A DNA stretch of 33,161 nucleotides, taken from a virus. Taxonomy: Duplodnaviria; Heunggongvirae; Uroviricota; Caudoviricetes. Made by a program: the position numbers and the translations under genes. The stretch lies in IMG/VR virus record IMGVR_UViG_2690316097_000007; one strand, written 5' to 3'. Position 1 is the stretch's first letter. Each line of letters begins with the position of its first letter. Positions 1,935 to 30,181 of the stretch are shown here, piece after piece. The notes under the pieces are model-generated. The model was not told the origin of the DNA. It worked only from the letters and a program-made list of their open reading frames with translations, and searched no databases.

Positions 1935-2915
1935 CTAACGTCCTGCTTTTAACAATAACCAGATAAACACCGGCGCACCCAACGTTGCGGTGACCACGCC
2001 AATAGGCAGCTCTGCGGCAGCTAATGCCAGGCGCGCTACAATATCGGCCAGCAGCACTGCGCTCGCCCCTGCCAGCGCGCAGCCGGGAAGTAATACGCGA
2101 TGATCGGTTAAACCACACAACCGAAGAATATGTGGGATCACCAGACCAATAAAGCCGATAGCACCCGCCAGCGCCACACTGACGCCAACCATCCAGCCGG
2201 TCGCTGCCACCAGCACATTGCGCCAGAACCACAGGGGTAAACCCAGTTGCCGCGCCGAGATCTCGCCAAGTGCTAACATATTCATCGGCCTGGACTGACA
2301 ACAGATCCACAACAACACGGGGATCAATGCCAGCATCAGCCAGCTTTGCCGCCAGTCTACGCCGCCAAAACCGCCCATCATCCAGTACATCAGCTGACGT
2401 AAATCAACAGAGGTGGAAAAGTAGATAGCCCACGTCATTAGTGCGCTACAGATAATCCCTAATGCAACGCCAGCCAGCAATAACCGACTGGTCGAAAGAT
2501 GACGACGGGCGAAACGTAAGAGTATTAAAGTGATGATAAGCGCGCCAGCAATCGCACACAGCCCTAGCGCCCAGTTGGGGAGTTGCCCTTGCCCAAGCAA
2601 TACCGCGGCGATAAGCCCCACGCCTGCGCCGTTAGAGACGCCAAGTAGTCCAGGTTCTGCCAGAGGATTTTCAAACAACGCCTGCATTACAGCGCCGGAT
2701 ATAGCCAGCGCCGCACCAACCAGCAATACAGCCAGCGTACGTGGCAGGCGAATTTGCCAGACGAACAGTTCGCCACGAGGAGTAAACCAGTCACCTGGCG
2801 AAATCCATTGTTCACCGGCGCAAAGGCTTAAGAGAAGCGCCAGCAGCATCAAAACTGACAGGCATAATAACCAGCGAATATTTTGTCGCTGTTGTTGGCG
2901 GGCAAGTGTCAGCAT
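1935..2915 (-). CDS. btuC: Vitamin B12 ABC transporter permease
   Basis: 326-aa highly hydrophobic multi-pass membrane protein of the FecCD/BtuC permease type, first gene of the btuCED cluster. Confidence 0.9.
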
Positions 2916-2972
2916 GGTATCCGTTCTGCTGAAGTGTCATGGCGTTGATTTTACGGTGACTCTTCGACAGTG

Positions 2973-2998
2973 AAAAGAAAAAAGGCCGCAGAGCGGCC
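2973..2998 (-). terminator. Candidate rho-independent terminator (minus strand)
   Basis: Plus strand reads AAAAGAAAAAA then GGCCGC-AGA-GCGGCC; on the minus strand this is a 6-bp GC stem with 3-nt loop followed by a T-run. It lies about 110 bp downstream of the minus-strand gene ending at 3108 and upstream of btuC. Confidence 0.55.
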
Positions 2999-3107
2999 AT
3001 AAACACAAACAAAAATCAATAAGTTAGGTAATTATCAAAGACTTACAGACACACAAAAACACAGCCAACCACAACAAATAACAGAGATGTGGTCAATTTG
3101 TGGATCA

Positions 3108-3545
3108 TCAGCCAACAAATTTAGCAACAAATACAGCAACCGCCGCTGTGAAAATGGTTGTGCACACTGGCACAATAATGCCACTCCAACGCCACTTCGT
3201 ATTATCATCAACCTTGTCAAACCGCCGATTCATCTCATCCATAATCTTGTCAAAGCGTTTATCCATCGCTTCGGTAAGCTCACCCTTCAGGCTGTTAATG
3301 TCTGATTTGAGCTGCTCTTTCAGGTTAGCTGTATCAGATTTAAGCTCACCTTTCAGATTCGCAATATCGCATTCAAGATCACCTTTCAGATGTGCTATGT
3401 CTGCTTTGAGTTCACCTTTCACCTCACCAACATCGGCTTTAGTTGAGAGGTTTGTAGTGCGTTCAGCAAGCGTCGCAAGGTCGTTTCTTGTTAGCGATAA
3501 ATCACCTTCGAGCCGCTCAATTCGCCTTTCAAGTTTATCTGACAT
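3108..3545 (-). CDS. Tail-anchored coiled-coil membrane protein with five 11-residue repeats (function unknown)
   Basis: Start placed at the internal Met (MSDKLERR...) because GGAGG lies about 5 nt upstream; the track ORF extends to 3662 with a poor RBS. The protein has five hendecad repeats (D-x-x-x-L-K-G-E-L-K-x) and a C-terminal hydrophobic helix (IIVPVCTTIFTAAVAVFVAKFV). AT-rich. Confidence 0.6.
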   Translation of the reverse strand: MSDKLERRIERLEGDLSLTRNDLATLAERTTNLSTKADVGEVKGELKADIAHLKGDLECDIANLKGELKSDTANLKEQLKSDINSLKGELTEAMDKRFDKIMDEMNRRFDKVDDNTKWRWSGIIVPVCTTIFTAAVAVFVAKFVG

Positions 3546-3645
3546 TCCGCCTCCACTACTGCCGCCATCGCCACCATGATAAAGCACATCACGCTCAGAA
3601 TGCGACACACTACCTGCTGAATTACCGAAAAGATTTCTTGCTACA

Positions 3646-4146
3646 TTACCCATTATCACCATCCTGCGCTTTGTCTTTCTCCAACCACTTCAGCACCGCA
3701 GACGTACGATAAAGGCTCAGGTAACCACAATTCAGGCAATGCAGCGTGTAATAAGTTTTGCGCATATCAGGTATGCTCTTAACATCACCCAAAAAAGCAT
3801 AAGATACATAATGCTTTATGTTCTCTTTAATTAACTCACTCTGTTCCTCCAGGGGTAGATTGTTAAAATTTTCTGGTTTCTTATTTTTATCCCAGCAAAG
3901 ATCCATACTTTCTGGAACAGATAATCGCGACGATCCACATGAAGGGCAGACACTGGAGACCCCCTTCTCAGACAAGAAACGGAAGAAGATTTCTGGCGTA
4001 ATCTCCATCAGCCGCTCTTTATGTTTTTTGACACGACTCATCGACTTCTTATTGATTTCATCAGCTTCTTCTTTGCATTTATCTTCTATATATTTCGATA
4101 GTAAATAGTCATATAACTCTTTTTTTGTAGGTTTTTTTATTTCCAT
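3646..4146 (-). CDS. Hypothetical Cys-pair (putative zinc-ribbon) protein, AT-rich cargo gene
   Basis: 166-aa ORF with CPSCG and CLNCG motifs about 70 residues apart and Lys/Glu-rich N-terminus. Its start codon lies 2 nt downstream of the int stop on the same strand, suggesting co-transcription with C-int. Confidence 0.6.
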   Translation of the reverse strand: MEIKKPTKKELYDYLLSKYIEDKCKEEADEINKKSMSRVKKHKERLMEITPEIFFRFLSEKGVSSVCPSCGSSRLSVPESMDLCWDKNKKPENFNNLPLEEQSELIKENIKHYVSYAFLGDVKSIPDMRKTYYTLHCLNCGYLSLYRTSAVLKWLEKDKAQDGDNG

Positions 4147-4148
4147 AG

Positions 4149-5126
4149 TTACATTCCTCCCAAGGGATTAAACCTCACCGCATCCTGCAAGTAATCCGGC
4201 GCAAGATGGGCATAAATCATCGTTGTCTGAATCTTTGCGTGCCCCAGAATTTTCTGGAGCGTCAGAATATTGCCGCCGTTCATCATGAAATGACTGGCGA
4301 AGGTGTGGCGCAGCGCATGAACAGCCTGGCCGTCAGGAACATCAGGTGCGACCGTTTTGATGACATCGCGAACCAATGAATAATCCAGCGTCGGAAACAC
4401 CAGTTTCCCGCCCCGTTTTTTGATCTTTTCAAACAGGCTTTCAGAAATAGGAACGGTACGGTTTTTGCTGTTCTTCGTTTTTGAAAAAGTGATTCGACAA
4501 TGAAGAACACGGCGCTGCTCCAGTGCCGCTACCTCGCCCCATCGCGCCCCGGTCGACAGAAGGATTTCGACGGCCAGCCGTTCATCGGGATTTTCAGCCA
4601 GTGCATCCAGCAACTGAACACATTCAGACTTACTCAGATATCCCATTTCACGCTCGTTAACCTTCATTCCTTTAAGGCCTTGAACGGGGTTATCGTTAAG
4701 AAAATGGCCGGATGAGATGAGTGCGGTAAACATCGCGCTTAACGCCCCAATCTCTCGATTTATGGTGCTGGGCTGTATCCCCTGCTCTATCCTGGACACA
4801 CGTAGCTCGGTGAGCATCGTTGTATTAAGTTTATGCACGCACGGGTCATCCATTGCCTCACTCAAGCGCAGCAATTTAAGGCGCGTGTTATGCCCTGACT
4901 TCATTAGCTGGCCGTGGTATTTCCACCACAAGTCAATAAGCACTGACAGCGGACGGCGATCAATGGAGTTTCCTTTCCACTCATTGTTATGCTGTTGCGC
5001 CAGCACCCACCGCTCATATAAAACTGCATCCGATTTCGTTTTAAATTTTTTGCGAATGCGTTTGCCTTTACGCCCCTCAGGACGCATGTCAAGAAGATAC
5101 CCTCCCGGAATTGATTTTATGCTCAT
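4149..5126 (-). CDS. int: Phage tyrosine integrase (P2-like)
   Basis: C-terminal catalytic region HALRHTFASHF...LGHAKIQTTMIYAHL (R, H-x-x-R and catalytic Tyr). Start placed at internal Met (MSIKSIPGG) giving about 325 aa; the 375-aa track ORF has a non-conserved-looking extension. Lies beside a C-like repressor and divergent cox as in P2. Confidence 0.85.
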   Translation of the reverse strand: MSIKSIPGGYLLDMRPEGRKGKRIRKKFKTKSDAVLYERWVLAQQHNNEWKGNSIDRRPLSVLIDLWWKYHGQLMKSGHNTRLKLLRLSEAMDDPCVHKLNTTMLTELRVSRIEQGIQPSTINREIGALSAMFTALISSGHFLNDNPVQGLKGMKVNEREMGYLSKSECVQLLDALAENPDERLAVEILLSTGARWGEVAALEQRRVLHCRITFSKTKNSKNRTVPISESLFEKIKKRGGKLVFPTLDYSLVRDVIKTVAPDVPDGQAVHALRHTFASHFMMNGGNILTLQKILGHAKIQTTMIYAHLAPDYLQDAVRFNPLGGM

Positions 5127-5175
5127 TCGTGAAGCCCCAGCGTTACAAGACCACCATGCCCCCAGCGTTCCATGA

Positions 5176-5487
5176 TTAGCCGGGCTGTGTGCCAGTCTTG
5201 CGGGATTTTTGAGAAGACGATGTGTTTTCTGGCCCATCAGGGGAGAGAGAAGGACTGATCTGCCCAGCAGCCTCATTTGTTTCGTTACTCATCAACCACG
5301 TAGTGTATTTTTTAAATTCCGGGTGCATTGTGATTTTCAGTAAAACCTCCGTTCCCACACCTCGAATACCAGTCTCGTATTGCTTAACCGTACCAACCGC
5401 AATACCTATTGAATCCGCGAACTTTGCCTGACTAAGCCCCTCAGATTCTCGAATTGCTTTTAGCTTCTTTGATATCTCTATTGACAT
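5176..5487 (-). CDS. C: Immunity repressor (P2 C-like HTH protein)
   Basis: About 104 aa from internal Met (MSIEISKKLKAIRESEGLSQAKFADSIG...), HTH of XRE type, resembles P2 repressor C from memory (FKKYTTWLMSNE vs P2 FTKYTLWFMTNQ). Upstream of int on the same strand, divergent from cox. Confidence 0.75.
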   Translation of the reverse strand: MSIEISKKLKAIRESEGLSQAKFADSIGIAVGTVKQYETGIRGVGTEVLLKITMHPEFKKYTTWLMSNETNEAAGQISPSLSPDGPENTSSSQKSRKTGTQPG

Positions 5488-5582
5488 GGTGTGCACCTGA
5501 ATACCATATTGGTTATCAGTTGAGTACCACTTGACGCTACAAAGAGCCACAAATAGCACCAGATTGAATAGGTTATCACACC
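5488..5582. promoter_or_regulatory. Divergent immunity-switch region (Pc/Pe-like promoters and operators)
   Basis: 95-bp intergenic region between divergent C and cox. Contains direct repeats of GGTTATCA (about 5509 and 5568) that could be operator half-sites. Assigned by position, analogous to the P2 C/cox switch. Confidence 0.45.
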
Positions 5583-5861
5583 ATGGCAAAAGTCCTTAAC
5601 ACATACGAACAAGCGGATTTTGAGCGTTTGGCGGCGTTCTACCCATACCGTAATGAACATGGGCTACCGGTACTTGAAGAAAGCCTAGAGGATTATGCGA
5701 AACGCACAAATCAAAGCATTCTCGCTGTAAGAAGGCAGGCTGATAGATCGGTAATTCCCGTTACTCAAGAAGGAAGAAACACAAAACGCAAAGTAAATCT
5801 CTTCGCAATTTTCCTGAAAACCATCAGAAACGCAGAGAAATACGTGCAGATGACAAAATAA
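5583..5861 (+). CDS. cox: Cox-like excisionase/transcriptional regulator
   Basis: 92-aa ORF transcribed divergently from C, same size and position as P2 Cox. Confidence 0.65.
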   Translation: MAKVLNTYEQADFERLAAFYPYRNEHGLPVLEESLEDYAKRTNQSILAVRRQADRSVIPVTQEGRNTKRKVNLFAIFLKTIRNAEKYVQMTK

Positions 5862-7921: not shown

Positions 7922-10744
7922 ATGACGGCAGAGTACATCAGGGACTGGCAACAACCGCGCCACGCAGTGGGGCGTGAAGGAACGGGGATCCCCGCTCCTG
8001 AATCCGCGCTTTCCTCCTGGCTGGATGCCCACCGGGCAGAGAACGAGCGCCGCCAGGAAATGGCTGATGCGGCGTTCTCCGCCACGCCACTGGGCAACCT
8101 GATTAATAAAAGCCTGGACGCACAGGAAAAACAGGACAAAACCATCACACTGGCAGGAGACGCCAGAAAACAGGCACGCGGCGCGGTGGATGAAGCCATG
8201 GCCTCGCTGCGCCTGCTGCCGTCCTATCTGCGCGATCCGCTTATTCGCCACCTCTCCTTCCTGCGCAAAAAACAGGAAGCCGATCGCCGGAAAGGCAAAA
8301 AGAGCTGGCAGGCGGAACGCTATGCACGCGGAACCCTGCGCAAAATATTCGAACGTCTGGATCGCACTGACGGACACTGGCTGACACCGGGTTATCGCTC
8401 CCTTGCCGGACGTGAACGCCTGGACGATTTGCTTTACCTGCCGCAACTCAACAAACACCAGATACAGACGCTGGCCACCATGACGGCGGCGATGTTCAGC
8501 AGCACCTTCGAAAAACTCTGCGATGGTTTTGGCGCGACTGATGGCGAGCTGACCATGGATGTAACGCTGAAGGCGTATCAGATGCTGGCCCGCATGGCGT
8601 TACACTTACACGCCATGCCTCCGCATTATGACGCACTGACAACAGACAAAGACCGGAGGCACGAACCGGACACAGAACTGCTGCCGGGCGCAATCCTTCG
8701 CCTGACCTGTGCGGAATGGTGGAAACGCAAACTGTGGCTGTTACGTTGCGAGTGGAGAGAAGAACAACTTCGCGCCGCCTGTCTGGTTTCCAGAAAAACA
8801 TCGCCCTATCTGAGCCAGGACGCGTTAAGCGAGTTTCGCGCACAGCGCGAGAAAACACGCGATTTCCTGAAAAGTTTCATGCTGGAAAATGAAGACGGGT
8901 TCACGATTGATCTCGAGACGGTGTATTACGCGGGAGTAAGTAACCCGGTTCACCGTAAGGCAGAAATGATGGCCACCATGAAGGGGCTGGAACTTCTGGC
9001 CGAAGCCCGTGGCGACAAAGCGGTGTTTCTGACTGTCACCTGCCCGTCAAAATACCACGCCACAACGGAGAACGGTCATCCGAATCCCAAATGGAACGGG
9101 GCCACAATGCGCGACTCCAGCGATTACCTGGTTAACACGTTTTTTGCGACGGTCCGCAAAAAACTGAACCGCGACGGCCTGCGCTGGTATGGCATCCGCA
9201 CGGCGGAGCCTCACCATGACGGCACCGTGCACTGGCATATGATGGTCTTTGCTCATCCGGAAGAAATCGACACCATTGTGTCCCACACCCGCGATATTGC
9301 CATTCAGGAAGATCGTCACGAGCTGGGCGATGACATAACTCCGCGCTTTAAGGCGGAGTATGTAGACGGCTCAAAAGGCACGCCAACCAGCTACATCGCC
9401 ACCTACATCGGGAAAAACCTGGACAGCCGCGCCGTGGATGGCATCGACCCGAAAACGGGCAAGCCACGCGTTGACCACGAAACCGGAAAATCAATGGCCG
9501 AGAGCGTGGAACGCGCCATCGGCTGGGCGCGCCTTCACCGGGTCCGCCAGTTCCAGTTCTTTGGCATCCCCTCCCGCCAGGTATGGCGTGAACTGCGCCG
9601 CCTTGCCAGCCAGATGGCACGCAACCCGGAAGGCCCGCAACGGCTGAAGGATGACGCAATGGATGCGGTTCTTGCCGCCGCTGATGCCGGATGTTTTGCC
9701 ACCTACATAGAGAAACAGGGCGGCGTACTTGTTCCACGCAAAGACTACCTGATTCGCACCGCCTACGACCTCGCCGATGAGCTGAACGATTACGGCGAAC
9801 AGAGCGTACAGATTTACGGGATCTGGTCACCACTCATCGGGGAATCCTCCCGTGTGTGCACGCATCCGGATAACTGGAAGCTGGTAAGACGCAAACCGGA
9901 AGCGGAAGACAGCGCCCGCGAAAATGGTTTTGACCTTCAGGGCGGCCCTGCCGCCCCTTGGACTCGTGGCAATAACTGTCCCCGTGTACAGGAAACGGAC
10001 AACAACGGGACAGAACAGCCGGAAGAACGGCCAGCACCGTGGCCGCAGCTCCCTGACGGCGTTGATGTGGATGAATGGATGCGCTCACTGAAACGGCACG
10101 AACGCCGGGCGCTGATGCGTTCGCTTCGTGACAAACAGGCAAAAAACAGCAGTGATGAAATGCAGAGCTGGACACAGAGCCGCAAACAGCAGCGGCCTTT
10201 GCCTGATAACCACGAATTACTCGCTAAAGAATGGCGGGAGTCTGCTGAATCTCTCGGCCTGCATATCGGTGAACAACAGATGCAGCACCTGTTACGGGGC
10301 GGCAGTCTGTACGTTGACGGCAGCATCATTGCACCGCAGGGATTTGAAATTGTACGCAAACCGGATACCCGCCCGGACAGCCGAATCACGCAGCTCTGGC
10401 AGCGCCTGAGCCGTAATCATGGCGTAAGCAGCACGGAGATCCGCCATAACCCGGTCGCCAGCTATCTGACACAGCTGGGGGCATCAGACCCTGAAGCCGC
10501 CGCACGCCTGGCATCCACACTTCAGCAGGACCAGAACACCATGAAAACACCCGTTACCGTGCTTTCTGACATGCTGCGCGCCATCCGCGACGCAGAGCAC
10601 GCACAGAGAATCAGTGAAACCACTGAACGCGCCCGCCGCAAAGCAGACCTGCTGCGGGGTGGCCTGACCAGTGGAAACAAAAAACAGACAGAAACGGGAC
10701 TCACGAATCCCGTAAATGAGCAAAAAACGCGCAGCGATATATGA
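7922..10744 (+). CDS. A: Rolling-circle replication initiator endonuclease (P2 gpA-like)
   Basis: 940-aa ORF with HUH-type motif (GTVHWHMMVF) and downstream Tyr-containing segment (TSYIATYIGKN) typical of P2 A-type replication proteins. Sits after the early operon as in P2. Longer than P2 A as I recall it (about 760 aa). Confidence 0.85.
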   Translation: MTAEYIRDWQQPRHAVGREGTGIPAPESALSSWLDAHRAENERRQEMADAAFSATPLGNLINKSLDAQEKQDKTITLAGDARKQARGAVDEAMASLRLLPSYLRDPLIRHLSFLRKKQEADRRKGKKSWQAERYARGTLRKIFERLDRTDGHWLTPGYRSLAGRERLDDLLYLPQLNKHQIQTLATMTAAMFSSTFEKLCDGFGATDGELTMDVTLKAYQMLARMALHLHAMPPHYDALTTDKDRRHEPDTELLPGAILRLTCAEWWKRKLWLLRCEWREEQLRAACLVSRKTSPYLSQDALSEFRAQREKTRDFLKSFMLENEDGFTIDLETVYYAGVSNPVHRKAEMMATMKGLELLAEARGDKAVFLTVTCPSKYHATTENGHPNPKWNGATMRDSSDYLVNTFFATVRKKLNRDGLRWYGIRTAEPHHDGTVHWHMMVFAHPEEIDTIVSHTRDIAIQEDRHELGDDITPRFKAEYVDGSKGTPTSYIATYIGKNLDSRAVDGIDPKTGKPRVDHETGKSMAESVERAIGWARLHRVRQFQFFGIPSRQVWRELRRLASQMARNPEGPQRLKDDAMDAVLAAADAGCFATYIEKQGGVLVPRKDYLIRTAYDLADELNDYGEQSVQIYGIWSPLIGESSRVCTHPDNWKLVRRKPEAEDSARENGFDLQGGPAAPWTRGNNCPRVQETDNNGTEQPEERPAPWPQLPDGVDVDEWMRSLKRHERRALMRSLRDKQAKNSSDEMQSWTQSRKQQRPLPDNHELLAKEWRESAESLGLHIGEQQMQHLLRGGSLYVDGSIIAPQGFEIVRKPDTRPDSRITQLWQRLSRNHGVSSTEIRHNPVASYLTQLGASDPEAAARLASTLQQDQNTMKTPVTVLSDMLRAIRDAEHAQRISETTERARRKADLLRGGLTSGNKKQTETGLTNPVNEQKTRSDI

Positions 10745-10820: not shown

Positions 10821-11780
10821 ATGAAAATTTGTATCGACGACGGCTCCACCAACATCAAGCTGGCATGGACTGAGAACGGCGAACGCCGCAACGCCATCAG
10901 CCCGAACAGCTTCAAGTCGGAATGGTCTGCGCCGTTCGGTGGCATGCAGCCCGCGAACTACATGCTTGATGGCGTGCGCTATGGTTTTGATCCGGTCAGC
11001 GATCGCTTTGTCCAGACAACCGACACGCAATACCAGTACAGCGATGTAAATGTCATTGCCATTCATCACGCGCTGGTCAAATCAGGCATCACGCCACAGG
11101 AGGTGGATGTGGTTGTCCCCCTGCCACTGAGCGAGTATTTCGACACAAACGCACAGCCGGACATGGCCAACATCAACCGCAAAAAAGCGAACGTTATGCG
11201 CCCGGTGGAGTACCAGAACGGCGAAGCATTCACTATCCGTAACGTGCGGGTTATGCCTGAATCCATTCCGGCTGGCTTTAAGGCACTGGCTGACATGAGT
11301 CCGTTTGAATCCCTGCTGATTGTGGATTTGGGCGGAACCACGCTGGATGTGGCAAAGGTTCAGGGGCAACTGGCAGGTATCAGCCAGGTGTTTTGCGATC
11401 CACACGTAGGCGTTTCTCTGATGGCCGATGCCGTACTGTCGGTGATGGCCACTAACGGTATGCGCACCAGTCACCACATCGCCAATACCATTATCGAACA
11501 TCGCCATGATGAAGCCTGGCTGCGCCAGCACATCCACAATGACGCGCATTACGCCAGCCTGATGGCGGTTATTCGTGAAAAGGAAGAAACACTGAAACAA
11601 CGCGTGATCCGCGCGCTGGCGGGTTTTTCGGGTTACGGGCGGGTGATGGTTGTCGGTGGAGGGGCGGAGATTGTGGCACCCGCTATCCGCGAAGCCTGCG
11701 GAGTTAATGCGACTTTCATCGCGGACGGGGTGCCACAGTTTGCTCTGGTTAATGGGCTGTACGCAATGGACAAGGAGTAA
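10821..11780 (+). CDS. parM: ParM/StbA-like actin-family ATPase
   Basis: 319-aa ORF. N-terminal phosphate-1 motif IDDGSTNIKLAW, then YSDVNVIAIHHAL, VMPESIPAG, LIVDLGGTTLD and VGGGAE all align in order with plasmid R1 ParM as I recall it. No search run. Confidence 0.8.
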   Translation: MKICIDDGSTNIKLAWTENGERRNAISPNSFKSEWSAPFGGMQPANYMLDGVRYGFDPVSDRFVQTTDTQYQYSDVNVIAIHHALVKSGITPQEVDVVVPLPLSEYFDTNAQPDMANINRKKANVMRPVEYQNGEAFTIRNVRVMPESIPAGFKALADMSPFESLLIVDLGGTTLDVAKVQGQLAGISQVFCDPHVGVSLMADAVLSVMATNGMRTSHHIANTIIEHRHDEAWLRQHIHNDAHYASLMAVIREKEETLKQRVIRALAGFSGYGRVMVVGGGAEIVAPAIREACGVNATFIADGVPQFALVNGLYAMDKE

Positions 11781-11784
11781 ACCA

Positions 11785-12096
11785 ATGACGACACCAACCA
11801 GACGGATAAGTTTCTATCTGAAGCCTGCGGCCGTCAAGAACGAAAGCGAAGCATGCGCCTGGCTGGGCAGCCTTACACCAGAAGCCCGCAAAAGCGGCCA
11901 ACGCGTGGCTTTTCTGGCCGGGCTGGCACTTCTGAAAATGAATCCAGCAGAGGCTTACCGACTGGCTGCATGGGCTGACGATGAGGCGTTATCGGTGACA
12001 CAAACCAGGACAGAACGCCCCGTGCCACAGCCAGTACCAACCGCACAGATAACCAGTCAGATAGCAGGGAATATCCGGGCATTATTTCCTGAATGA
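11785..12096 (+). CDS. parR: ParR-like small DNA-binding adaptor protein
   Basis: About 103 aa from ATG at 11785 (MTTPTRRISFYLKP...). Resembles R1 ParR at the N-terminus (RRxIxFxLxP ... AxLAGLAL) and at the C-terminal LFPE. Immediately downstream of parM as in parMR operons. Confidence 0.6.
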   Translation: MTTPTRRISFYLKPAAVKNESEACAWLGSLTPEARKSGQRVAFLAGLALLKMNPAEAYRLAAWADDEALSVTQTRTERPVPQPVPTAQITSQIAGNIRALFPE

Positions 12097-12156
12097 CGAA
12101 TTTGACGGCTTTTAATTTTATCGGGGTGCACTGTCGCCCCGCACGAGGAAAACACG

Positions 12157-12681
12157 ATGAAAAAATACGAATACATGCTAATGAAAGAAGCACTGCGGGC
12201 TGGTCTGGCTCCCTGTCCTGTATCCGTAGAAGCTGTTGTTGGGAACACGATTTTCCGAACGCTGCGAAATCGCGTATCCGTGAAGATGGTTCACCAACCA
12301 CCCAAATCTACCAGCATGATCTATCTGCCGCTGCCCGAGGCTATCAAACTTATGCGTTCGCTGAAATTTGCGATTTGGATGCAGACACAAATCAACAAAG
12401 CGGTGCAAAACACCTTCGTTAAGAGACTAATACCGGAGCTTGCTGCCAGATGTGCAAAATGTACCAGACCCGCACTTCAATTTGATCTGTCATTGATTCA
12501 ACAAGCTACGGAGGCAGAACTGTACCGCCTGTCACCTATCCGTGATGCTCACACGGAAGCATCAGAAATGTTCCGGCTCATGTTTCAATTTAATTTTGCC
12601 GTTCGACGCACACGCGTTCAGGTCAATCGCATGATGCAGGAGCAGGAAGAGTTAACACAGTACAAAGGGGGCAGCCAGTGA
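12157..12681 (+). CDS. Hypothetical protein (hotspot cargo)
   Basis: 174-aa ORF with a GAGG-type RBS; no recognisable motif. Stop overlaps the next start. Confidence 0.55.
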   Translation: MKKYEYMLMKEALRAGLAPCPVSVEAVVGNTIFRTLRNRVSVKMVHQPPKSTSMIYLPLPEAIKLMRSLKFAIWMQTQINKAVQNTFVKRLIPELAARCAKCTRPALQFDLSLIQQATEAELYRLSPIRDAHTEASEMFRLMFQFNFAVRRTRVQVNRMMQEQEELTQYKGGSQ

Positions 12682-12917
12682 GTAATTCAGCACGACTACA
12701 GCTTGGTTTTTCACCGCTATCAAAAACCATCGTATTGGCAAAAATGCGTGACTTAGGAGACGGAACAAAACGCCGCGTAGGAAATGATCGCGGTCGCGAT
12801 GTAACCAACGAGGCCGCTCAACTCGTTTGGCATCTAGTCATGGCAGAAGGCGGTGAAATTAATTGGGAGCTGGATGATGGTTCTCGTATGATTTTGAGGG
12901 CCGAGAAGAGTAAATAG
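12678..12917 (+). CDS. Hypothetical protein (hotspot cargo)
   Basis: 79-aa ORF with GTG start overlapping the upstream stop (GTGA), suggesting translational coupling. Confidence 0.45.
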   Translation: MSNSARLQLGFSPLSKTIVLAKMRDLGDGTKRRVGNDRGRDVTNEAAQLVWHLVMAEGGEINWELDDGSRMILRAEKSK

Positions 12918-12931
12918 CTCAAGGGGGATTA

Positions 12932-13117
12932 ATGCTAAATGATGATGAAGAAGAGCTGCTTATGCAGGAATGGTCGCTCGGTGATTATGATAATGGTGAA
13001 AATGGGTGCCCGCATTGTGGCCGTTATCGTTTATGTATCTGCCAGAATGGAAAACACAGATGTGAAAAGTGCAATTGGTCTCCGGAACTTAATGACTACG
13101 TGCCGATCGAGTGGTAG
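12932..13117 (+). CDS. Small Cys-rich (putative zinc-ribbon) protein
   Basis: 61-aa ORF with strong RBS (AGGGGG). Motifs CPHCG...CICQ...HRCEKC give 7 Cys/His ligand candidates; acidic N-terminus. Confidence 0.5.
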   Translation: MLNDDEEELLMQEWSLGDYDNGENGCPHCGRYRLCICQNGKHRCEKCNWSPELNDYVPIEW

Positions 13118-13157
13118 AGGTAAGTCACACTAGGTGTTTTTTAGTTGATTTTATAAA

Positions 13158-14655: not shown

Positions 14656-16437
14656 CAGAACTCCATAACCGTGAAACGCTCGTTTTCTCCTTCGCCGCCA
14701 ATCGGTTCGTTAATGACAGCAAGCATGGTTGCCCACGCAAGGTCGCCGTGGCTGATCCCCCTCGCGCGGTCCGTTTCGTAAGTGATAAAACCGCCCGGTG
14801 TTTTCACCTTACGCACGGCGTTAAAGGCCGCAACCAGCTCGCGTTCGGCGCGATCGTATTCCCACCGCCCGGCACGCATTATTTGCAGCATTTTCAGTAC
14901 CAGCGACCGTTTTGATGACAGCGTGAAGGTGTAAGGGATGGCGGCGGGAAAAAACCGTTTCACTATCTGATAGACGGCATCCCCGTGCCCTCCCGTCGCA
15001 TCAATGCCGATGTGTTCCACGTTGTAGCGATACGTGAACTCTTCAATAACTCTGGCCTGCTCTTCAAATTCCAGCCCCTGAACGCGTCGCGTCTCCACCG
15101 TTCTGAAACGACCACCAGGAACAGCCGGAGGAACCACCACGGACACAGCGCCGCTGTCGCCGTTACCACTGCTGCCGTTTGCGTCATACCCAATCCATAC
15201 CGGACGATTCCCCATCGGGCGGGGGGCAAAGGGTTTCCAGTCTTTCCAGTCGTCGTATCCGTCAACACCGCAGCCAATCAGGATATTCAGGTTAAATGCC
15301 GATTCCCCTTCGCGGACAAACTCACACATATAGAGATTGCGGAACTCGTCTTCGGTGTTTTCATCACGAATTTCATCAATATCGGTGTGTTTCCAGCCGT
15401 GATTAACCACATCTTCCAGCGTGACAATTTGCCGCCACGTCCGGTCAGGGCAGATAAGCCCGTTATGCAGCGTTTTCCAGTCCACAGAAAAACGCTGGCG
15501 TTTATGCGCGGCCTTTTTCTCGTTCCAGCGGTCGCCGTTCCAGTAGGCGTATGCCTCGTGCGTTTCGGTGGATGGCGTGGAGAAGCAGGTGCGCCGCAGT
15601 CCGCTGAGGGTTGCCATAGCGCCAGCCACCTTGCGCAGTTCAGCAAAGCGACTGACCCAGAAAAATTCATCAAAATAAAAATTGCCCGTGTAAGATTGCG
15701 CCGTCGCAGCAGAAGTGCCGAGAAAATGCATCTCTGCGCCGTTGGAGAGGATGATTTTATCGCCCCCTTTCAGCTCCACATCGACTTCAGCCGCGGCCTT
15801 CTGAATAATGCTTTTAAACTGGAANNNNNNNNNNNNNNNNNNNNNNNNNNNNNNNNNNNNNNNNNNNNNNNNNNNNNNNNNNNNNNNNNNNNNNNNNNNN
15901 NNNNNNNNNNNNNNNNNNNNNNNNNNNNNNNNNNNNNNNNNNNNNNNNNNNNNNNNNNNNNNNNNNNNNNNNNNNNNNNNNNNNNNNNNNNNNNNNNNNN
16001 NNNNNNNNNNNNNNNNNNNNNNNNNNNNNNNNNNNNNNNNNNNNNNNNNNNNNNNNNNNNNNNNNNNNNNNNNNNNNNNNNNNNNCGGCAATCTGTTCCG
16101 GCGTGAAATGATTTTTGAGTTTTTTCGCCCGGCCTTTCTTTCCTGTGGCCGTCGCATCCGGCTGGCCATCATGCAGTTTTTTAAGCTGCCGGGTCAGCAG
16201 GTCTATTTCCTTAAAGTCACCACCTGTTTTATTCTGTTTTTCAGTAAGCTGGATGAGGCGCGCATCGATGGACTGCGTGACACGCTGCACGGGTGGCGTT
16301 TCATCCCACTGGTCGCGTTTTTTCCACGCATAAATCGTGTTCGGGTTTATTCCCATCAGACGTGATATTTCTGCGGGCGGATAACCCTGCCAGTAAAGTT
16401 GCCGCGCACGCTGGCGCACAAAAGCGTCCTGAATCAT
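14655..16437 (-). CDS. P: Terminase large (ATPase) subunit (P2 gpP-like), interrupted by an N-run
   Basis: N-terminus MIQDAFVRQRARQLYWQGYPPAEISRLMGINPNTIYAWKKRDQWDE is the HTH-containing start typical of P2 gpP. The C-terminal part continues below the gap to 14655 in a different frame. Span is about 593 codons, close to the size of P2 gpP. Confidence 0.8.
15825..16085. other. Run of 261 N (assembly gap or masked sequence) inside the terminase gene
   Basis: Directly visible. The coding frames on the two sides differ by one position, so the gap length is approximate. Confidence 0.95.
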
Positions 16438-24951: not shown

Positions 24952-26661
24952 ATGAGTACCACAACACGAAAATTTAAAACCATTATCACCGATACGGGTG
25001 CAAAAAAATTAGCGCAGGCAACCGCGCCAGATGGGAAACCTGTCCGCCTGACACATATGGCCGTGGGTGACGGCGGCGGTACTTTACCCACGCCAGACAG
25101 TAAGCAGACCCGTCTTGTGCATGAGGTGTGGCGACATACCGTTAATCGCGTCACCCTGGACGCAACACATCAGAACCACATTATTGCGGAGCTGGTTATT
25201 CCTCCTGAAACGGGCGGATTCTGGATCCGGGAAATTGGTGTGTTTGATGAGCACGGCGATTTGATCGCGGTAGGCAATACTGCCGAAAGTTACAAGCCAA
25301 CCGTTGCCGAAGGATCCGGACGTGCACAAACATTTCGCACCATTCTGACCGTATCCAGCACTGCCACTGTGGCGCTTACCGTGGATAACACCATGGTGAT
25401 GGCCACAGTGAATTACGTGGATGACAAACTGAAAGAGCATGAACAGTCACGACGTCACCCGGACGCCTCGCTGACCGCAAAAGGCCTTGTCCAGCTCAGC
25501 AACGCCACCAACAGCACGTCTGAAACGCTGGCAGCGACACCAAAAGCCGTTAAGGCAGTAATGGATGAAACGAACAAGAAAGCCCCATTAAACAGCCCGG
25601 CACTGACCGGAACGCCAACAACACCAACTGCGCGACAGGGAACGAATAATACCCAAATCGCAAGCACGGCTTTCGTTATGGCTGCGATTGCCGCACTTGT
25701 AGACTCTTCGCCTGATGCACTGAACACACTGAACGAGCTGGCGGCGGCGCTGGGCAACGACCCGAATTTTGCGACCACCATGACTAACGCGCTTGCGGGT
25801 AAGCAACCGAAAGATGCCACTCTGACGGCGCTGGCGGGGCTTGCTACTGCGGCAGACAGGTTTCCGTATTTTACGGGGAATGATGTCGCCAGCCTGGCAA
25901 CCCTGACAAAAGTCGGGCGGGATATTCTTGCGAAATCGACCGTTGCTGCCGTTATCGAATACCTCGGTTTACAGGAAACGGTAAATCAGGCTTCTGGCGC
26001 ATTACAGAAAAACCAGAACGGCGCAGATATTCCGGGGAAAGATACCTTCACCAAAAATATTGGTGCCTGCCGCGCATATAGCTCATGGCTGAATATTGGT
26101 GGCGATAGTCAGGTCTGGACAACCGCGCAATTTATTTCGTGGCTGGAGAGTCAGGGAGCATTTAACCATCCTTACTGGATGTGCAAAGGCTCATGGGCTT
26201 ATGCAAATAATAAGGTCATTACAGATACAGGTTGCGGAAATATTTGTCTTGCAGGTGCTGTGGTGGAAGTTATTGGCACTCGCGGCGCAATGACCATACG
26301 CGTTACCACGCCGAGCACGTCCAGCGGTGGCGGAATTACTAACGCTCAATTCACTTATATTAATCATGGTGATGCTTACGCTCCTGGCTGGCGACGAGAC
26401 TACAACACGAAAAATCAACAACCTGCATTTGCTTTAGGGCAAACAGGAAGCACTGTCGGAAATGATAAAGCTGTTGGCTGGAACTGGAATAGCGGGGTCT
26501 ATAACGCAAACATTGGTGGCGCATCGACATTAATCCTCCACTTCAATATGAATACGGGGAGCTGCCCTGCTGTACAGTTCCGCGTGAATTACAGGAACGG
26601 CGGTATTTTTTATCGTTCAGCGCGTGATGGTTATGGCTTTGAAGCTGACTGGTCAGAGTGA
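24952..26661 (+). CDS. H: Tail fibre protein (P2 gpH-like N-terminus with a shared C-terminal distal domain)
   Basis: 569-aa ORF directly after I. The N-terminal region is of the P2 H type; the C-terminal roughly 360 aa are identical to the C-terminus of the stf gene at 30182-33134. The stop codon TGA (26659-26661) coincides with the first 3 nt of the IS. Confidence 0.8.
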   Translation: MSTTTRKFKTIITDTGAKKLAQATAPDGKPVRLTHMAVGDGGGTLPTPDSKQTRLVHEVWRHTVNRVTLDATHQNHIIAELVIPPETGGFWIREIGVFDEHGDLIAVGNTAESYKPTVAEGSGRAQTFRTILTVSSTATVALTVDNTMVMATVNYVDDKLKEHEQSRRHPDASLTAKGLVQLSNATNSTSETLAATPKAVKAVMDETNKKAPLNSPALTGTPTTPTARQGTNNTQIASTAFVMAAIAALVDSSPDALNTLNELAAALGNDPNFATTMTNALAGKQPKDATLTALAGLATAADRFPYFTGNDVASLATLTKVGRDILAKSTVAAVIEYLGLQETVNQASGALQKNQNGADIPGKDTFTKNIGACRAYSSWLNIGGDSQVWTTAQFISWLESQGAFNHPYWMCKGSWAYANNKVITDTGCGNICLAGAVVEVIGTRGAMTIRVTTPSTSSGGGITNAQFTYINHGDAYAPGWRRDYNTKNQQPAFALGQTGSTVGNDKAVGWNWNSGVYNANIGGASTLILHFNMNTGSCPAVQFRVNYRNGGIFYRSARDGYGFEADWSE

Positions 26662-26722: not shown

Positions 26723-27025
26723 ATGAGCAGAAAAACCCAACGTTACTCTAAAGAGTTCAAAGCCGAAGCTGTCAGAACGGTTCTTGAAAATCAACTTTCG
26801 ATCAGTGAAGGCGCTTCCCGATTATCTCTTCCTGAAGGCACTTTAGGACAATGGGTTACCGCCGCCAGAAAAGGGCTCGGTACTCCTGGTTCCCGCACGG
26901 TGGCTGAACTGGAATCTGAAATTCTGCAACTGCGTAAGGCGTTAAATGAAGCTCGCCTTGAGCGAGATATATTAAAAAAAGCAACAGCGTATTTTGCACA
27001 GGAGTCGCTGAAAAATACGCGTTAA
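26723..27025 (+). CDS. IS3-family transposase OrfA (HTH plus leucine-zipper part)
   Basis: 100-aa ORF with AAGGAG RBS; ends ...ERDILKKATAYFAQESLKNTR, typical of IS3-family OrfA proteins. Confidence 0.85.
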   Translation: MSRKTQRYSKEFKAEAVRTVLENQLSISEGASRLSLPEGTLGQWVTAARKGLGTPGSRTVAELESEILQLRKALNEARLERDILKKATAYFAQESLKNTR

Positions 27026-27060
27026 TCGAACAATGGCGACAACAATTTCCCATTGAAGCG

Positions 27061-27879
27061 ATGTGTCAGGTATTTGGTGTATCCAGGAGCGGTTATTACA
27101 ACTGGGTACAGCATGAACCCTCAGACAGAAAACAAAGTGATGAGCGGCTAAAACTGGAGATTAAGGTGGCACATATCCGCACTCGCGAAACATATGGAAC
27201 CCGGCGGCTCCAGACGGAGCTGGCAGAGAATGGCATCATCGTTGGTCGTGACCGACTGGCACGTCTTCGTAAGGAGCTAAGGCTACGCTGTAAGCAGAAA
27301 CGCAAGTTCAGAGCGACTACGAACTCGAACCACAATCTGCCAGTTGCGCCAAATCTGCTGAACCAGACGTTCGCTCCTACAGCACCAAATCAGGTCTGGG
27401 TGGCGGACCTGACGTATGTTGCCACACAGGAGGGATGGTTGTACCTCGCTGGCATCAAAGATGTTTATACGTGCGAAATTGTCGGCTACGCCATGGGAGA
27501 GCGCATGACAAAAGAGCTGACAGGTAAAGCCCTGTTTATGGCGCTCAGGAGCCAGCGCCCACCTGCCGGGCTAATCCACCACTCTGATCGAGGTTCACAG
27601 TACTGCGCATACGATTACCGGGTCATACAGGAGCAGTCTGGTCTGAAAACATCAATGTCGCGTAAAGGTAACTGTTACGACAACGCTCCGATGGAAAGCT
27701 TCTGGGGAACGCTGAAAAATGAGAGCCTGAGCCACTATCGTTTTAATAACCGGGATGAAGCCATCTCAGTAATACGGGAATACATTGAGATTTTCTACAA
27801 TCGTCAGCGTCGTCACTCTCGTCTGGGGAATATCTCCCCGGCAGCCTTCAGGGAAAAATATCATCAGATGGCTGCTTAA
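27061..27879 (+). CDS. IS3-family transposase OrfB (DDE catalytic domain), expressed as an OrfAB fusion by -1 frameshift
   Basis: 272-aa ORF in the -1 frame relative to orfA. The -1 frame is open from the slippery site (26974) through 27061. DDE-type motifs are visible (WVADLTYV, HHSDRGSQY, integrase-core-like C-terminus). Confidence 0.85.
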   Translation: MCQVFGVSRSGYYNWVQHEPSDRKQSDERLKLEIKVAHIRTRETYGTRRLQTELAENGIIVGRDRLARLRKELRLRCKQKRKFRATTNSNHNLPVAPNLLNQTFAPTAPNQVWVADLTYVATQEGWLYLAGIKDVYTCEIVGYAMGERMTKELTGKALFMALRSQRPPAGLIHHSDRGSQYCAYDYRVIQEQSGLKTSMSRKGNCYDNAPMESFWGTLKNESLSHYRFNNRDEAISVIREYIEIFYNRQRRHSRLGNISPAAFREKYHQMAA

Positions 27880-27923
27880 AAAAAGAACAAATGGTAGTGT
27901 CCGCTATTGCCAGTACACCTCAN

Positions 27924-28606
27924 TTAATCCTGCGAATGGCAACACAAAGCCGATGTTTGTTGGTCAGGGCGATCAGATATTCATGAACGACGTGTTCCTG
28001 AAACGCCTGACGGCTCCCACCATTACCAGCGGCGGTAATCCTCCGGCATTTTCCCTGACACCGGACGGAAAACTGACCGCTAAAAATGCAGATATCAGTG
28101 GCAGTGTGAATGCGAACGCCGGGACGCTCAACAATGTCACAATTAATGAGAACTGTCAGATTAAGGGGAAACTGTCAGCCAACCAGATTGAAGGCGATAT
28201 AGTCAAAACAGTGGGTAAGGCTTTTCCGCGGGACTCCCGGGCACCGGAGCGGTGGCCATCAGGGACCATTACCGTCAGGATTTATGACGATCAGCCTTTT
28301 GACAGGCAAATTGTTATTCCGGCGGTGGCATTCAGCGGCGCTAAACATGAGCGGGAGAATAACGATATTTATTCGTCATGCCGCCTGATAGTACGGAAAA
28401 ACGGTGCTGAAATTTATAACCGTACCGCGCTGGATAATACGCTGATTTACAGTGGTGTTATTGATATGCCAGCTGGTCGCGGCCACATGACGCTGGAGTT
28501 TTCGGTGTCAGCATGGCTGGTGAATAACTGGTATCCCACAGCAAGTATCAGCGATTTGCTGGTTGTGGTGATGAAGAAAGCCACCGCAGGCATCAGTATC
28601 AGCTGA
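27924..28606 (+). pseudogene. J: 3' fragment of a lambda J-like host-specificity (central tail fibre) gene
   Basis: About 227 codons after the IS. Resembles the C-terminal receptor-binding part of lambda J as recalled ([29 protein letters not shown]...; ends [10 protein letters not shown] vs lambda KKQALGISVV). The rest of J (about 900 codons) is missing; followed by lom as in lambda. Confidence 0.75.
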
Positions 28607-28673
28607 ATTTTATAACCCATATACGGGCGCCAGAAATGGCGCCTTTTTTATTGCAGAAAAGCGAGAGGTAATT

Positions 28674-29273
28674 ATGCGTAAAGTTTGTGCAGCCATTTTG
28701 TCCGCAGCCATCTGTCTGTCCGTATCCGGTGCGCCTGCATGGGCGTCTGAACATCAGTCCACACTGAGCGCGGGGTATCTTCATGCCCGTACGAACGCTC
28801 CCGGCAGCGATAATCTGAACGGGATTAACGTGAAATACCGTTATGAGTTTACGGACGCGCTGGGGCTGATTACGTCCTTCAGTTATGCCAATGCTGAGGA
28901 TGAGCAAAAAACGCACTACAGCGATACCCGCTGGCATGAAGATTCCGTGCGTAACCGCTGGTTCAGCGTGATGGCGGGGCCGTCTGTACGCGTGAATGAA
29001 TGGTTCAGCGCGTATGCGATGGTGGGTGTGGCTTACAGCCGTGTGTCGACTTTCTCCGGGGATTATCTCCGCGTAACTGACAACAAGGGGAAAACGCACG
29101 ATGTGCTGACCGGAAGTGATGACGGTCGCCACAGCAACACGTCTCTGGCGTGGGGGGCTGGCGTGCAGTTTAACCCGACCGAATCCGTGACCATTGACCT
29201 TGCTTATGAAGGTTCCGGTAGTGGTGACTGGCGAACGGATGCATTTATTGTTGGTATCGGATACCGTATCTGA
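28674..29273 (+). CDS. lom: Lom-like outer-membrane beta-barrel protein (Ail/Lom family)
   Basis: 199-aa ORF with signal peptide and C-terminal aromatic residue pattern (IVGIGYRI), in the lambda position between J and stf. Confidence 0.85.
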   Translation: MRKVCAAILSAAICLSVSGAPAWASEHQSTLSAGYLHARTNAPGSDNLNGINVKYRYEFTDALGLITSFSYANAEDEQKTHYSDTRWHEDSVRNRWFSVMAGPSVRVNEWFSAYAMVGVAYSRVSTFSGDYLRVTDNKGKTHDVLTGSDDGRHSNTSLAWGAGVQFNPTESVTIDLAYEGSGSGDWRTDAFIVGIGYRI

Positions 29274-29424: not shown

Positions 29425-30129
29425 ATGACAGTAAAAATTTCTGGCGTGCTTAAAGATGGCACAGGAAAACCAGTACAGAACTGCACCATTGTGCTGAAGG
29501 CCAGACGAACCAGCAGCACGATGGTGGTGAACACGGTGGCCTCTGAAAATCCGGATGAAGCCGGACGTTACAGCATGGATGTTGAGCATGGTCAGTACAG
29601 CGTCACCCTGCTGGTTGAAGGTTTTCCGCCTTCACATGCCGGGACCATTACCGTCTATGAAGGTTCCAGACCAGGTACGCTGAATGATTTTCTCGGTGCC
29701 ATGACGGAGGATGATGTCCGACCGGAGGCACTGCGCCGCTTTGAGCAGATGGTGGAAGAGGTGTCACGTAACGCCTCCGCGGTTGCACAGAATACGGCAG
29801 CCGCGAAAAAATCAGCCAGCGAGGCGGCAACTCATGCAACCGATGCTGCAGCCTCAGCACGTGCCGCCAGCACGTCAGCCGGACAGGCCGCGTCGTCGGC
29901 TCAGTCAGCGTCTTCCAGCGCAGGAACGGCATCGACAAAGGCCCGTGAAGCAGCAAAAAGTGCTGCTGCAGAGTCATCAAAAAGCGCGGCAGCTACCAGC
30001 GCCAGTGCCGCGAAAACGTCAGAAACGAATGCCGCAGCATCACAAAAATCGGCAGCCACTTCTGCATCCACAGCGACCACGAAGGCGTCAGAAGCTGCCA
30101 CCTCGGCACGGGGTGNATTAGCCAGGTAA
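29425..30129 (+). pseudogene. Truncated N-terminal copy of a side tail fibre gene (stf-like, about 231 codons)
   Basis: N-terminus MTVKISGVLKDGTGKPVQNCTIVLKAR... is about 90% identical to the start of the full stf at 30182 and matches the lambda Stf N-terminus as recalled. Reading frame ends just after an N at 30116 and is followed by a terminator. Confidence 0.65.
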
Positions 30130-30143
30130 CACAGTGTTATGAC

Positions 30144-30171
30144 AGCCCGCCGGTTCAGGCGGGCTTTTTTG
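30144..30171 (+). terminator. Rho-independent terminator
   Basis: Perfect 8-bp GC-rich stem AGCCCGCC / GGCGGGCT with 6-nt loop GGTTCA, followed by TTTTTT. Lies between the truncated stf fragment and the full stf gene. Confidence 0.7.
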
Positions 30172-30181
30172 TGGGGTGAAT

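Follow-up and report, generated by a model that had tools for sequence, protein, structure and literature searches.

A mobile two-gene cassette encoding a predicted zinc-ribbon protein and a tail-anchored coiled-coil protein at the int-att junction of a P2-like prophage

What kind of element are the two small genes that separate the integrase gene (int) of a P2-like prophage from the Escherichia coli gene btuC? The question arises from a viral sequence of 33,161 nucleotides (nt) (IMG/VR record IMGVR_UViG_2690316097_000007; this whole stretch is referred to as the window), in which an initial annotation had described two minus-strand genes between int and btuC and proposed them as a candidate undescribed module expressed in the lysogen. 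Both genes were recovered as open reading frames (ORFs), called here A (3646-4146) and B (3108-3653 or 3108-3662, depending on the start codon). From their position, their occurrence in other phages and the variability of the locus, we concluded that A-B is a mobile accessory cassette, made up of two genes and carried by temperate phages, which is located in this prophage between int and the attP arm. The coordinates of the features are collected in Table 1.

The window begins in the E. coli chromosome, where the minus strand encodes nlpC, btuD, btuE and btuC (30-2915). To the right of these genes lies the P2-like prophage with a C-type repressor gene, int, divergent early genes, the replication endonuclease gene (7922-10744), ParM/partition genes and P2-type structural genes. 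Alignment to the empty btuC-ihfA site of strain MG1655 placed the host/prophage junction after ...GGCCGCAGAGCGGCC, that is, at 2998/2999, and among the listed genomes without the insert the match to 2700-3250 likewise ended at 2998. In the O26 strain RM8426, where the prophage is complete and its region from int to the start of btuC is 99.9% identical to the window, the 25-bp sequence AAAGAAAAAAGGCCGCAGAGCGGCC is repeated at attR beside ihfA (L035 27424-27448). Consequently, the junction together with the 25-bp duplication places both A and B inside the prophage, as the annotation had claimed, and the att core coincides with the intrinsic terminator of ihfA. The terminator-like hairpin reported after the second gene does exist (GGCCGCTCTGCGGCC followed by six T residues at 2998-2984 of the minus strand, found by the terminator scan 109 nt past the B stop), but it was wrongly ascribed to the module. 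Since the hairpin is present in the empty MG1655 site and duplicated at attR, it is the att core plus the ihfA terminator, and it was rejected as a structure of the module itself. The att core is part of attP and thus also follows B in the excised phage. The AT-rich segment between the core and B, presumed to be the Int/IHF arm region, is shared up to approximately 3106 with the prophages of FDAARGOS_403 and ETEC4068, which carry different cargo and diverge from that point.

A-B pairs with 20-58% identity were found in further phages, and in the loci examined they followed int, lay between C and int, or followed a lambda-type cI gene. Salmonella and Providencia have homologues that are 45-58% identical and likewise arranged as a pair, and the conservation of this pairing among diverged homologues argues that A and B are real genes rather than chance ORFs. 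The order int-A-B-att at btuC/ihfA is common to the E. coli alleles and Salmonella, while int-A-B stands beside prc/proQ in one locus (L033) and beside spoVR, with more cargo downstream of B, in two others (L044/L045). The order is C-A-B-int in 186-like prophages, one of which has two extra genes between C and A (L013), and in the lambdoid contig L043 the pair is located between a lambda-type cI, encoding helix-turn-helix (HTH) and S24 peptidase domains, and recE. Around the pair, neighbouring genes overlap or are less than 50 nt apart. Single-protein scans of viral sequences gave no match.

The int-att interval itself is variable among E. coli strains. In 5,426 complete E. coli genomes, a matching integrase was present in 299, being at least 95% identical in 292 of them, while window-type B occurred in 39 and window-type A together with B in 23. 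An unrelated gene encoding 131 amino acids (aa), WP_000416308.1, was detected in 158 genomes, including those of the O104:H4 strain HUSEC2011 and O111 strains; its product matched neither Pfam nor PADLOC. In four sampled loci, HUSEC2011 among them, this gene lies between int and the arm (L003 6406-6801; L036, L039). The cargo breakpoints are at the 3' end of int and near 3106. The presence of an unrelated cargo gene beside near-identical integrases indicates that A-B is dispensable for Int. Carriers of A-B include the enterohaemorrhagic E. coli (EHEC) lineages O26, O103, O111-related, O145 and O157, which are of clinical importance. In P2-like phages, the stretch between int and att is already on record as a minor defence hotspot, which accounts for 3% of P2 systems (PMC13586616).

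In the A protein, a long N-terminal helix is accompanied by the conserved helix TPELFxxFL, by two CxxC knuckles and by a C-terminal tail that is short and has several acidic residues. The paired CxxC motifs noticed in the annotation proved to be a family-wide property, as C67, C70, C137 and C140 are invariant across 21 sequences down to 20% identity, and so are F54, L58 and W154. The conserved motifs can be written as VTPxLFxxFLxEKGV...CxxCG and YYxxxCxNCG...VLxWxE. The AlphaFold model (mean predicted local distance difference test, pLDDT, 82) is confident and shows, besides the long N-terminal helix and a C-terminal one, a short helix and a small beta-sheet that bears the knuckles; shorter relatives (approximately 110-135 aa) are devoid of the N-terminal helix. 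On the basis of the two family-wide knuckles, A is classified as a zinc-ribbon protein with predicted metal binding, while all zinc-ribbon matches in Pfam were sub-threshold. A matched PHROG 4293, a family of unknown function, with E=8.1e-23 over profile positions 4-121 of 124. The family is rare: a word-indexed search of 5.8 billion clusters returned 18 protein clusters, and the profile, when run exhaustively against 1.84 billion proteins, returned 91 representatives at 50% identity. Neither A nor B exceeded the curated threshold of any family in Pfam, NCBIfam or PADLOC. A gave no fold match among solved structures and predicted viral structures, no match in a profile search against PDB sequences and none by tblastn in 50,697 phage records.

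The longest ORF of B (3108-3662, 184 aa) begins with an upstream ATG at 3662, RefSeq uses an internal Met codon at 3545 giving 145 aa, and the likeliest start is at 3653, giving 181 aa. Nine loci with A proteins approximately 58% to 24% identical were checked by script. In all nine, the B frame was open upstream past the A stop and had a start codon overlapping it by 1-20 nt, with an N-terminus that usually reads M-[G/S/N]-N. Thus, the 181-aa form, which overlaps A by 8 nt (ATGGGTAA), is the conserved one, and the RefSeq start was rejected as the sole start of B.

The annotation had described B as a tail-anchored coiled-coil protein with five 11-residue repeats, and both features were found in the 181-aa form. 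In the AF2 model, residues 1-36 are disordered (pLDDT below 50 at 1-31) and helices span residues 37-69, 72-146 and 150-180, the first being a heptad helix (LERRIERLEGDL...). The stalk starts with a beta-layer motif in which K72 and D74 are nearly invariant and where the model helix breaks, at residues 70-71. According to Hartmann et al. (PMC4786415), a beta-layer of the form [aliphatic]-A-T-K-[polar]-[DE] characterizes the membrane proteins with DUF1640 in prokaryotes and organelles. Window B fits it with S in place of A, its partners read FATKSD or FSTKSD, and the partner protein in L013 contains six ATKADLQxF nonads. The hendecads that follow were supported by a hydrophobic periodicity of 3.65, close to 11/3, and by Tandem Repeats Finder, which detected 3.2 copies of a 33-nt period at 3317-3421. 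Homologues differ in length by 11-residue steps, measuring 148, 159, 170, 181 or 192 aa in the long form and 112, 123, 134, 145 or 156 aa with the RefSeq start. B has a single hydrophobic segment (Kyte-Doolittle maximum 2.43), preceded by NTKWRW and followed by four residues, and the layout of (N/Q)TKW plus transmembrane (TM) segment is conserved in the partner proteins. The lack of a signal peptide together with the C-terminal anchor suggests that the stalk is cytoplasmic.

An hhalign comparison of the B family with a bona fide DUF1640 profile gave a probability of 98.4% (E=1e-14), covering only the part from the beta-layer to the TM segment. Window B scored 24.1 bits against Pfam PF07798, below the cutoff of 33.5, while PF07798 is among the precomputed matches of P0019, a protein 97% identical to it. 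By these profile comparisons the stalk of B is assigned to the DUF1640/CCDC90 type. Phmmer found nothing significant for B in PDB, and tblastn against the same 50,697 phage records gave weak matches to DUF1640 genes of Liberibacter and APSE phages. As the annotation had stated, neither protein could be assigned to a known defence or toxin family; outside these, family assignments are possible for the stalk of B and, by its PHROG match, for A.

Comparison of the alleles revealed that the cassette varies in a modular manner. Strain 98234 carries a remote A (120 aa) with a 145-aa B. In DEC5B, strain 2D and STEC388 (L038, L040, L041), A is of the P0094 type, 132 aa long and only 28% identical to that of the window, and the B beside it combines an unrelated N-peptide with a stalk and anchor approximately 92-98% identical to window B at the DNA level. 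The P0094-type A has no RefSeq annotation in DEC5B and strain 2D, and the intact 132-aa ORF is present there (L038 1697-2176; L041 1938-2417). In these alleles A and the N-peptide of B are swapped together while the stalk stays constant, the glycine linker being the junction, and the A-B alleles diversify rapidly. Joint swapping of A and the N-peptide fits a model in which A binds this peptide.

The locus has the order int, A, B, arm and core. As the annotation had stated, A starts 2 nt after int (stop TAA 4151-4149, start ATG 4146-4144), and the Shine-Dalgarno sequence GGAGGA of A is within the 3' end of int (4160-4155). The claimed AT-rich island is modest but real, with a GC content of 0.385 for A, 0.452 for B and 0.421 for the module, compared with 0.494 for int, 0.535 for the prophage and 0.532 for the window. 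From C to B, neighbouring genes overlap or are separated by at most 49 nt, and a minus-strand terminator scan downstream of C found nothing convincing before the att core. With such spacing and the att core as the sole convincing terminator, co-transcription of A-B with the repressor and integrase genes in the lysogen is the economical reading. The occurrence of homologous pairs in repressor/integrase operons of several phage types likewise makes expression in the lysogen likely.

Table 1. Positions of the cassette and its surroundings in the window
Feature	Position	Strand	Remark
att core, attL copy, AAAGAAAAAAGGCCGCAGAGCGGCC	2974-2998	.	identical in the empty MG1655 site and at attR of RM8426
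attL-proximal phage arm, AT-rich (GC content 0.32), 109 nt	2999-3107	.	prophage starts at 2999
Gene B, 181 aa, tail-anchored DUF1640/CCDC90-type coiled-coil protein (by profile comparison)	3108-3653	-	ORF; nine of nine loci; hhalign
C-terminal transmembrane anchor, B residues 159-177 of 181	3123-3179	-	hydropathy
Five 11-residue (hendecad) repeats, consensus LKGELKxDIAN, B residues 77-131	3261-3425	-	periodicity, DNA repeat
Beta-layer motif L-S-T-K-A-D, B residues 69-74, start of stalk	3432-3449	-	alignment, model
B N-terminal peptide (residues 1-26) and linker GGDGGSSGGG (27-36), changing with A type	3546-3653	-	alignments
Gene A, 166 aa, predicted soluble zinc-ribbon protein	3646-4146	-	
Second CxxC knuckle, C137-L-N-C140	3727-3738	-	invariant in alignment
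First CxxC knuckle, C67-P-S-C70	3937-3948	-	invariant in alignment
P2-type tyrosine integrase, 325 aa by RefSeq start	4149-5126	-	Pfam Int_N and Phage_integrase; RefSeq
C-type HTH immunity repressor, first gene of the presumed C-int-A-B transcript	5176-5487	-	RefSeq of identical region; ORF

Considering these results, we tentatively propose that A-B is a lysogen-expressed pair that excludes superinfecting phages or aborts their infection in the manner of RexAB, a role suggested by analogy and one that is a serious possibility rather than a probable outcome. In this model, A and B would be transcribed together with C and int from the lysogenic promoter up to the att-core hairpin, so that both products are present in the lysogen. 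B would be inserted into the inner membrane by its C-terminal anchor, with its DUF1640-type stalk, probably a trimer, extending into the cytoplasm. The length of the stalk would be set by the number of 11-residue repeats, and the glycine linker and the disordered N-peptide would be placed at its end. Cytoplasmic A could dock on its cognate N-peptide as a specificity or sensor subunit, and upon sensing a superinfecting phage B might perturb the membrane or block a membrane-proximal step, by which the infection would be excluded or aborted. A more specific version of this proposal, which we regard as possible but doubtful, is that A-B represents a new anti-phage system using prokaryotic and phage relatives of the mitochondrial MCUR1/CCDC90 stalks as membrane-tethered immune effectors. 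Its swappable sensor head, zinc-ribbon A on the N-peptide of B, would sit on a length-variable trimeric alpha/beta coiled-coil "ruler" on the inner side of the membrane, and prophages of P2-like, 186-like and lambdoid type would express it from their repressor operon. Among P4 hotspots, six of eight randomly picked cargoes with unknown function protected against phages (PMC13586616).

Several observations weigh against an exclusion pair of this kind. PADLOC-DB 2.0 returned for A just DUF3800_VII (E=0.005) and for B just coiled-coil-level matches to LmuB, ZorA and LeoBC, all of 21 bits or less. RexB has four TM segments, while B has one C-terminal anchor with a long cytoplasmic stalk and bears no pore-forming signature. 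In Providencia and one metagenome contig, the pair adjoins ogr and tail genes, which makes lysogenic expression less obvious there. P0110 (147 aa with a long acidic tail; L046 2537-2980) is a distant A homologue without a recognizable B. The covariation of A and the N-peptide could be a by-product of their linkage, with the breakpoint at the glycine linker. Finally, a conserved Met, preceded by GGAGG, follows the glycine run, and a short isoform made from the internal start may be the main product of B.

An addiction module similar to toxin-antitoxin (TA) systems would account for part of the same data. Here B would be a membrane toxin and A its cognate antitoxin, stabilizing the prophage with or without a phage trigger. 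The layout resembles that of type II TA systems, the small gene A preceding and overlapping the small gene B by 1-20 nt in all nine loci. Furthermore, the C-terminal tail of A has several acidic residues, A and the N-peptide of B covary as cognate sets, and a hok/gef gene lies at the other end of the RM8426 prophage. However, no toxin or antitoxin domain was found in A or B in Pfam, NCBIfam and PADLOC, a stalk of approximately 120 residues with variable repeats would be unusual in a small membrane toxin, and in 158 genomes the cassette is exchanged for an unrelated single gene with no obvious remnant antitoxin. We therefore consider this interpretation unlikely, though worth keeping in mind.

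Somewhat less probable is a role in lysogenic conversion, in which B would modulate a host inner-membrane complex as MCUR1/CCDC90B do, with A as an adaptor, thereby altering host physiology and not phage sensitivity. This analogy draws on the homology of the B stalk to DUF1640/CCDC90 proteins, whose eukaryotic members are described as inner-membrane scaffold factors, and on the location of the pair in a lysogeny operon. The homology is limited to the stalk and anchor and excludes the head domain, the gene context suggests no host partner, and rapid allele swapping and repeat-number variation fit better with conflict-driven evolution than with a scaffold of the housekeeping type.

A lytic-cycle function, with B as an XhlA-like holin accessory and A as its regulator, is very unlikely. 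Short B-type partners scored 30.5, 19.1 and 17.3 bits against XhlA (PF10779), the best of them just under the cutoff of 34.7, and weak PHROG matches to holin, spanin and XhlA-type "hemolysin" were seen. Nevertheless, XhlA was absent from the best 25 of 26 Pfam matches (E<=1) of window B, the repressor/integrase operon that contains the pair is far from the late lysis cassette and on the opposite strand, the pair follows cI in the lambdoid contig, and the RM8426 prophage already has a full set of holin, endolysin, LysB-like and LysC genes. It is still harder to maintain that A-B acts with Int in integration or excision, as a recombination directionality or att-architecture factor. Such a factor might well be translationally coupled to int, lie beside the att arm and have a zinc ribbon able in principle to bind nucleic acid, but near-identical integrases are accompanied by an unrelated gene at the same position, the pair also occurs after cI without an adjacent int and beside ogr, and B is a predicted membrane protein. 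The attL/attR mapping refutes a last reading, that A and B belong to the host or are spurious ORFs beyond the prophage. The host match ends at 2998 in the empty-site genomes listed, the genes are present in just 23-39 of the 5,426 genomes, and both proteins are conserved across genera.

Should A-B exclude phages, the prophage-borne defences would gain a new system of two proteins, and the widespread, uncharacterized bacterial DUF1640/CCDC90 family of membrane stalks would acquire its first role. The natural alleles offer ready material for studying specificity, as they comprise head swaps on a constant stalk and length steps of 11 residues. Given its carriage by EHEC, the cassette could affect phage susceptibility and the outcome of phage therapy or typing. 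Even if it does not exclude phages, the locus remains a clean case of P2-like phages exchanging cassettes where int meets att.

Some further observations were made on the surroundings of the pair. The P0110 gene, the solitary A, lies 1.1 kb upstream of csy1-csy4 (type I-F Cas). An IMG/VR contig (L029 4112-4782) carries a 5'-truncated A beside transposase genes of insertion sequence (IS) type, whereas B downstream of it is intact, so that some elements may hold a decaying cassette. Other genes ride along in the C/int operons, namely those of a secreted 135-aa protein and a tail-anchored protein with a Flk_N domain (L013 2804-3896) and that of a PIN_12 protein after int in an operon with A-B (L048 5687-6766). 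A 594-aa protein with no Pfam match on record is encoded after B in L044 (6056-7840). On the host side, the Rfam small RNA STnc540 (RF02082, 67 bits) covers the segment from the 3' end of ihfA to the start of btuC in the empty site (L002 1417-1575). The prophage splits this locus, leaving a fragmentary 22-bit match at window 2916-3039, and an Rfam scan of 2800-5800 found nothing beyond this sub-threshold, split match. btuC is now directly downstream of the phage C-int-A-B operon, with the attL copy of the terminator in between.

In the rest of the prophage, ParM and a partition/stability gene follow the replication endonuclease gene (10821-12096), and the next approximately 1 kb (12097-13155; ORFs 12157-12681 and 12678-12917), located between the replication and portal genes, is not shared with the RM8426 prophage. 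The replication-portal interval has been described as the main P2 defence hotspot (PMC13586616, PMC9122126). The RM8426 prophage encodes a serine O-acetyltransferase after the tail-fibre assembly gene (L035 17015-17587), a 500-aa PIN_4-domain protein without a PADLOC match between gpD and ogr (L035 24822-26324) and the hok/gef gene beside attR (L035 27019-27159). Past the P2-type tail-fibre gene (24952-26661), the window departs from this prophage. The regions examined there (26723-27879, 27785-29273 and 29425-33134) contain ORFs of IS3-family transposases, what we take to be the C-terminal part of a lambda J-type tail-tip protein and a 199-aa ORF presumably related to Lom-type outer-membrane proteins. 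Alanine-rich side-tail-fibre genes are duplicated, with a C-terminus repeating that of the P2-type fibre (25479-25778/31952-32251 and 26038-26406/32511-32879). Runs of N occupy 15825-16085, 27923, 30116, 31127-31266 and 31475-31548. Two origins are conceivable for the right end of the window, namely fusion with a lambdoid prophage through an IS element or an artefact of scaffolding.

Among the known systems that resemble the pair in organization is RexA/RexB, which brings about abortive-infection exclusion and is encoded in the cI-rexA-rexB operon of lambda. Both are two-gene cassettes; RexA/RexB comprises one soluble and one inner-membrane protein made from the lysogenic transcript, as predicted for A-B, and in L043 A-B directly follows the lambda-type cI, the position occupied by rexAB in lambda. 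No sequence or fold relation was found between the two pairs. A comparable arrangement is known from temperate mycobacteriophages, in which defence cassettes of two genes, such as Sbash gp30/31 and Butters gp30/31, adjoin the repressor or integrase gene of the prophage. These consist of a cytoplasmic and a membrane protein, expressed from the prophage beside the immunity genes, and exclude heterotypic phages. As both the proteins and the hosts are unrelated to those of A-B, the parallel is one of analogy only.

At the level of protein families, B shares the beta-layer, the hendecads and the single C-terminal TM segment with DUF1640/CCDC90 proteins (PF07798; MCUR1, CCDC90B and prokaryotic homologues), whose stalks form trimers where structures have been solved. 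It differs from them in that the head domain is replaced by a disordered peptide with a glycine linker and a heptad helix, and in that its gene always forms a pair with that of a zinc-ribbon protein in the lysogeny operon of a phage; we know of no function for any prokaryotic DUF1640 member. XhlA of the Bacillus PBSX-type lysis cassettes is likewise a small coiled-coil protein with an xTKW-like motif and a C-terminal TM segment. However, all matches to it were below threshold, window B is twice as long, and A-B belongs to a lysogeny operon instead of a lysis cassette.

The pair was not described in the literature searched, including searches for DUF1640, CCDC90 and XhlA combined with prophage or defence, which agrees with the novelty proposed in the annotation as far as the genes are concerned. 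Its site is less novel, being the minor int-att hotspot already reported for P2-like phages (PMC13586616). With that interval and the classical P2 hotspots (PMC9122126), the locus shares the fast turnover of cargo beside conserved core genes, while differing from them in a cargo that matches no DefenseFinder- or PADLOC-type system. Thus, the A and B proteins and their modular architecture are undescribed, while the hotspot position and the combination of a soluble with a membrane protein are of kinds already known.

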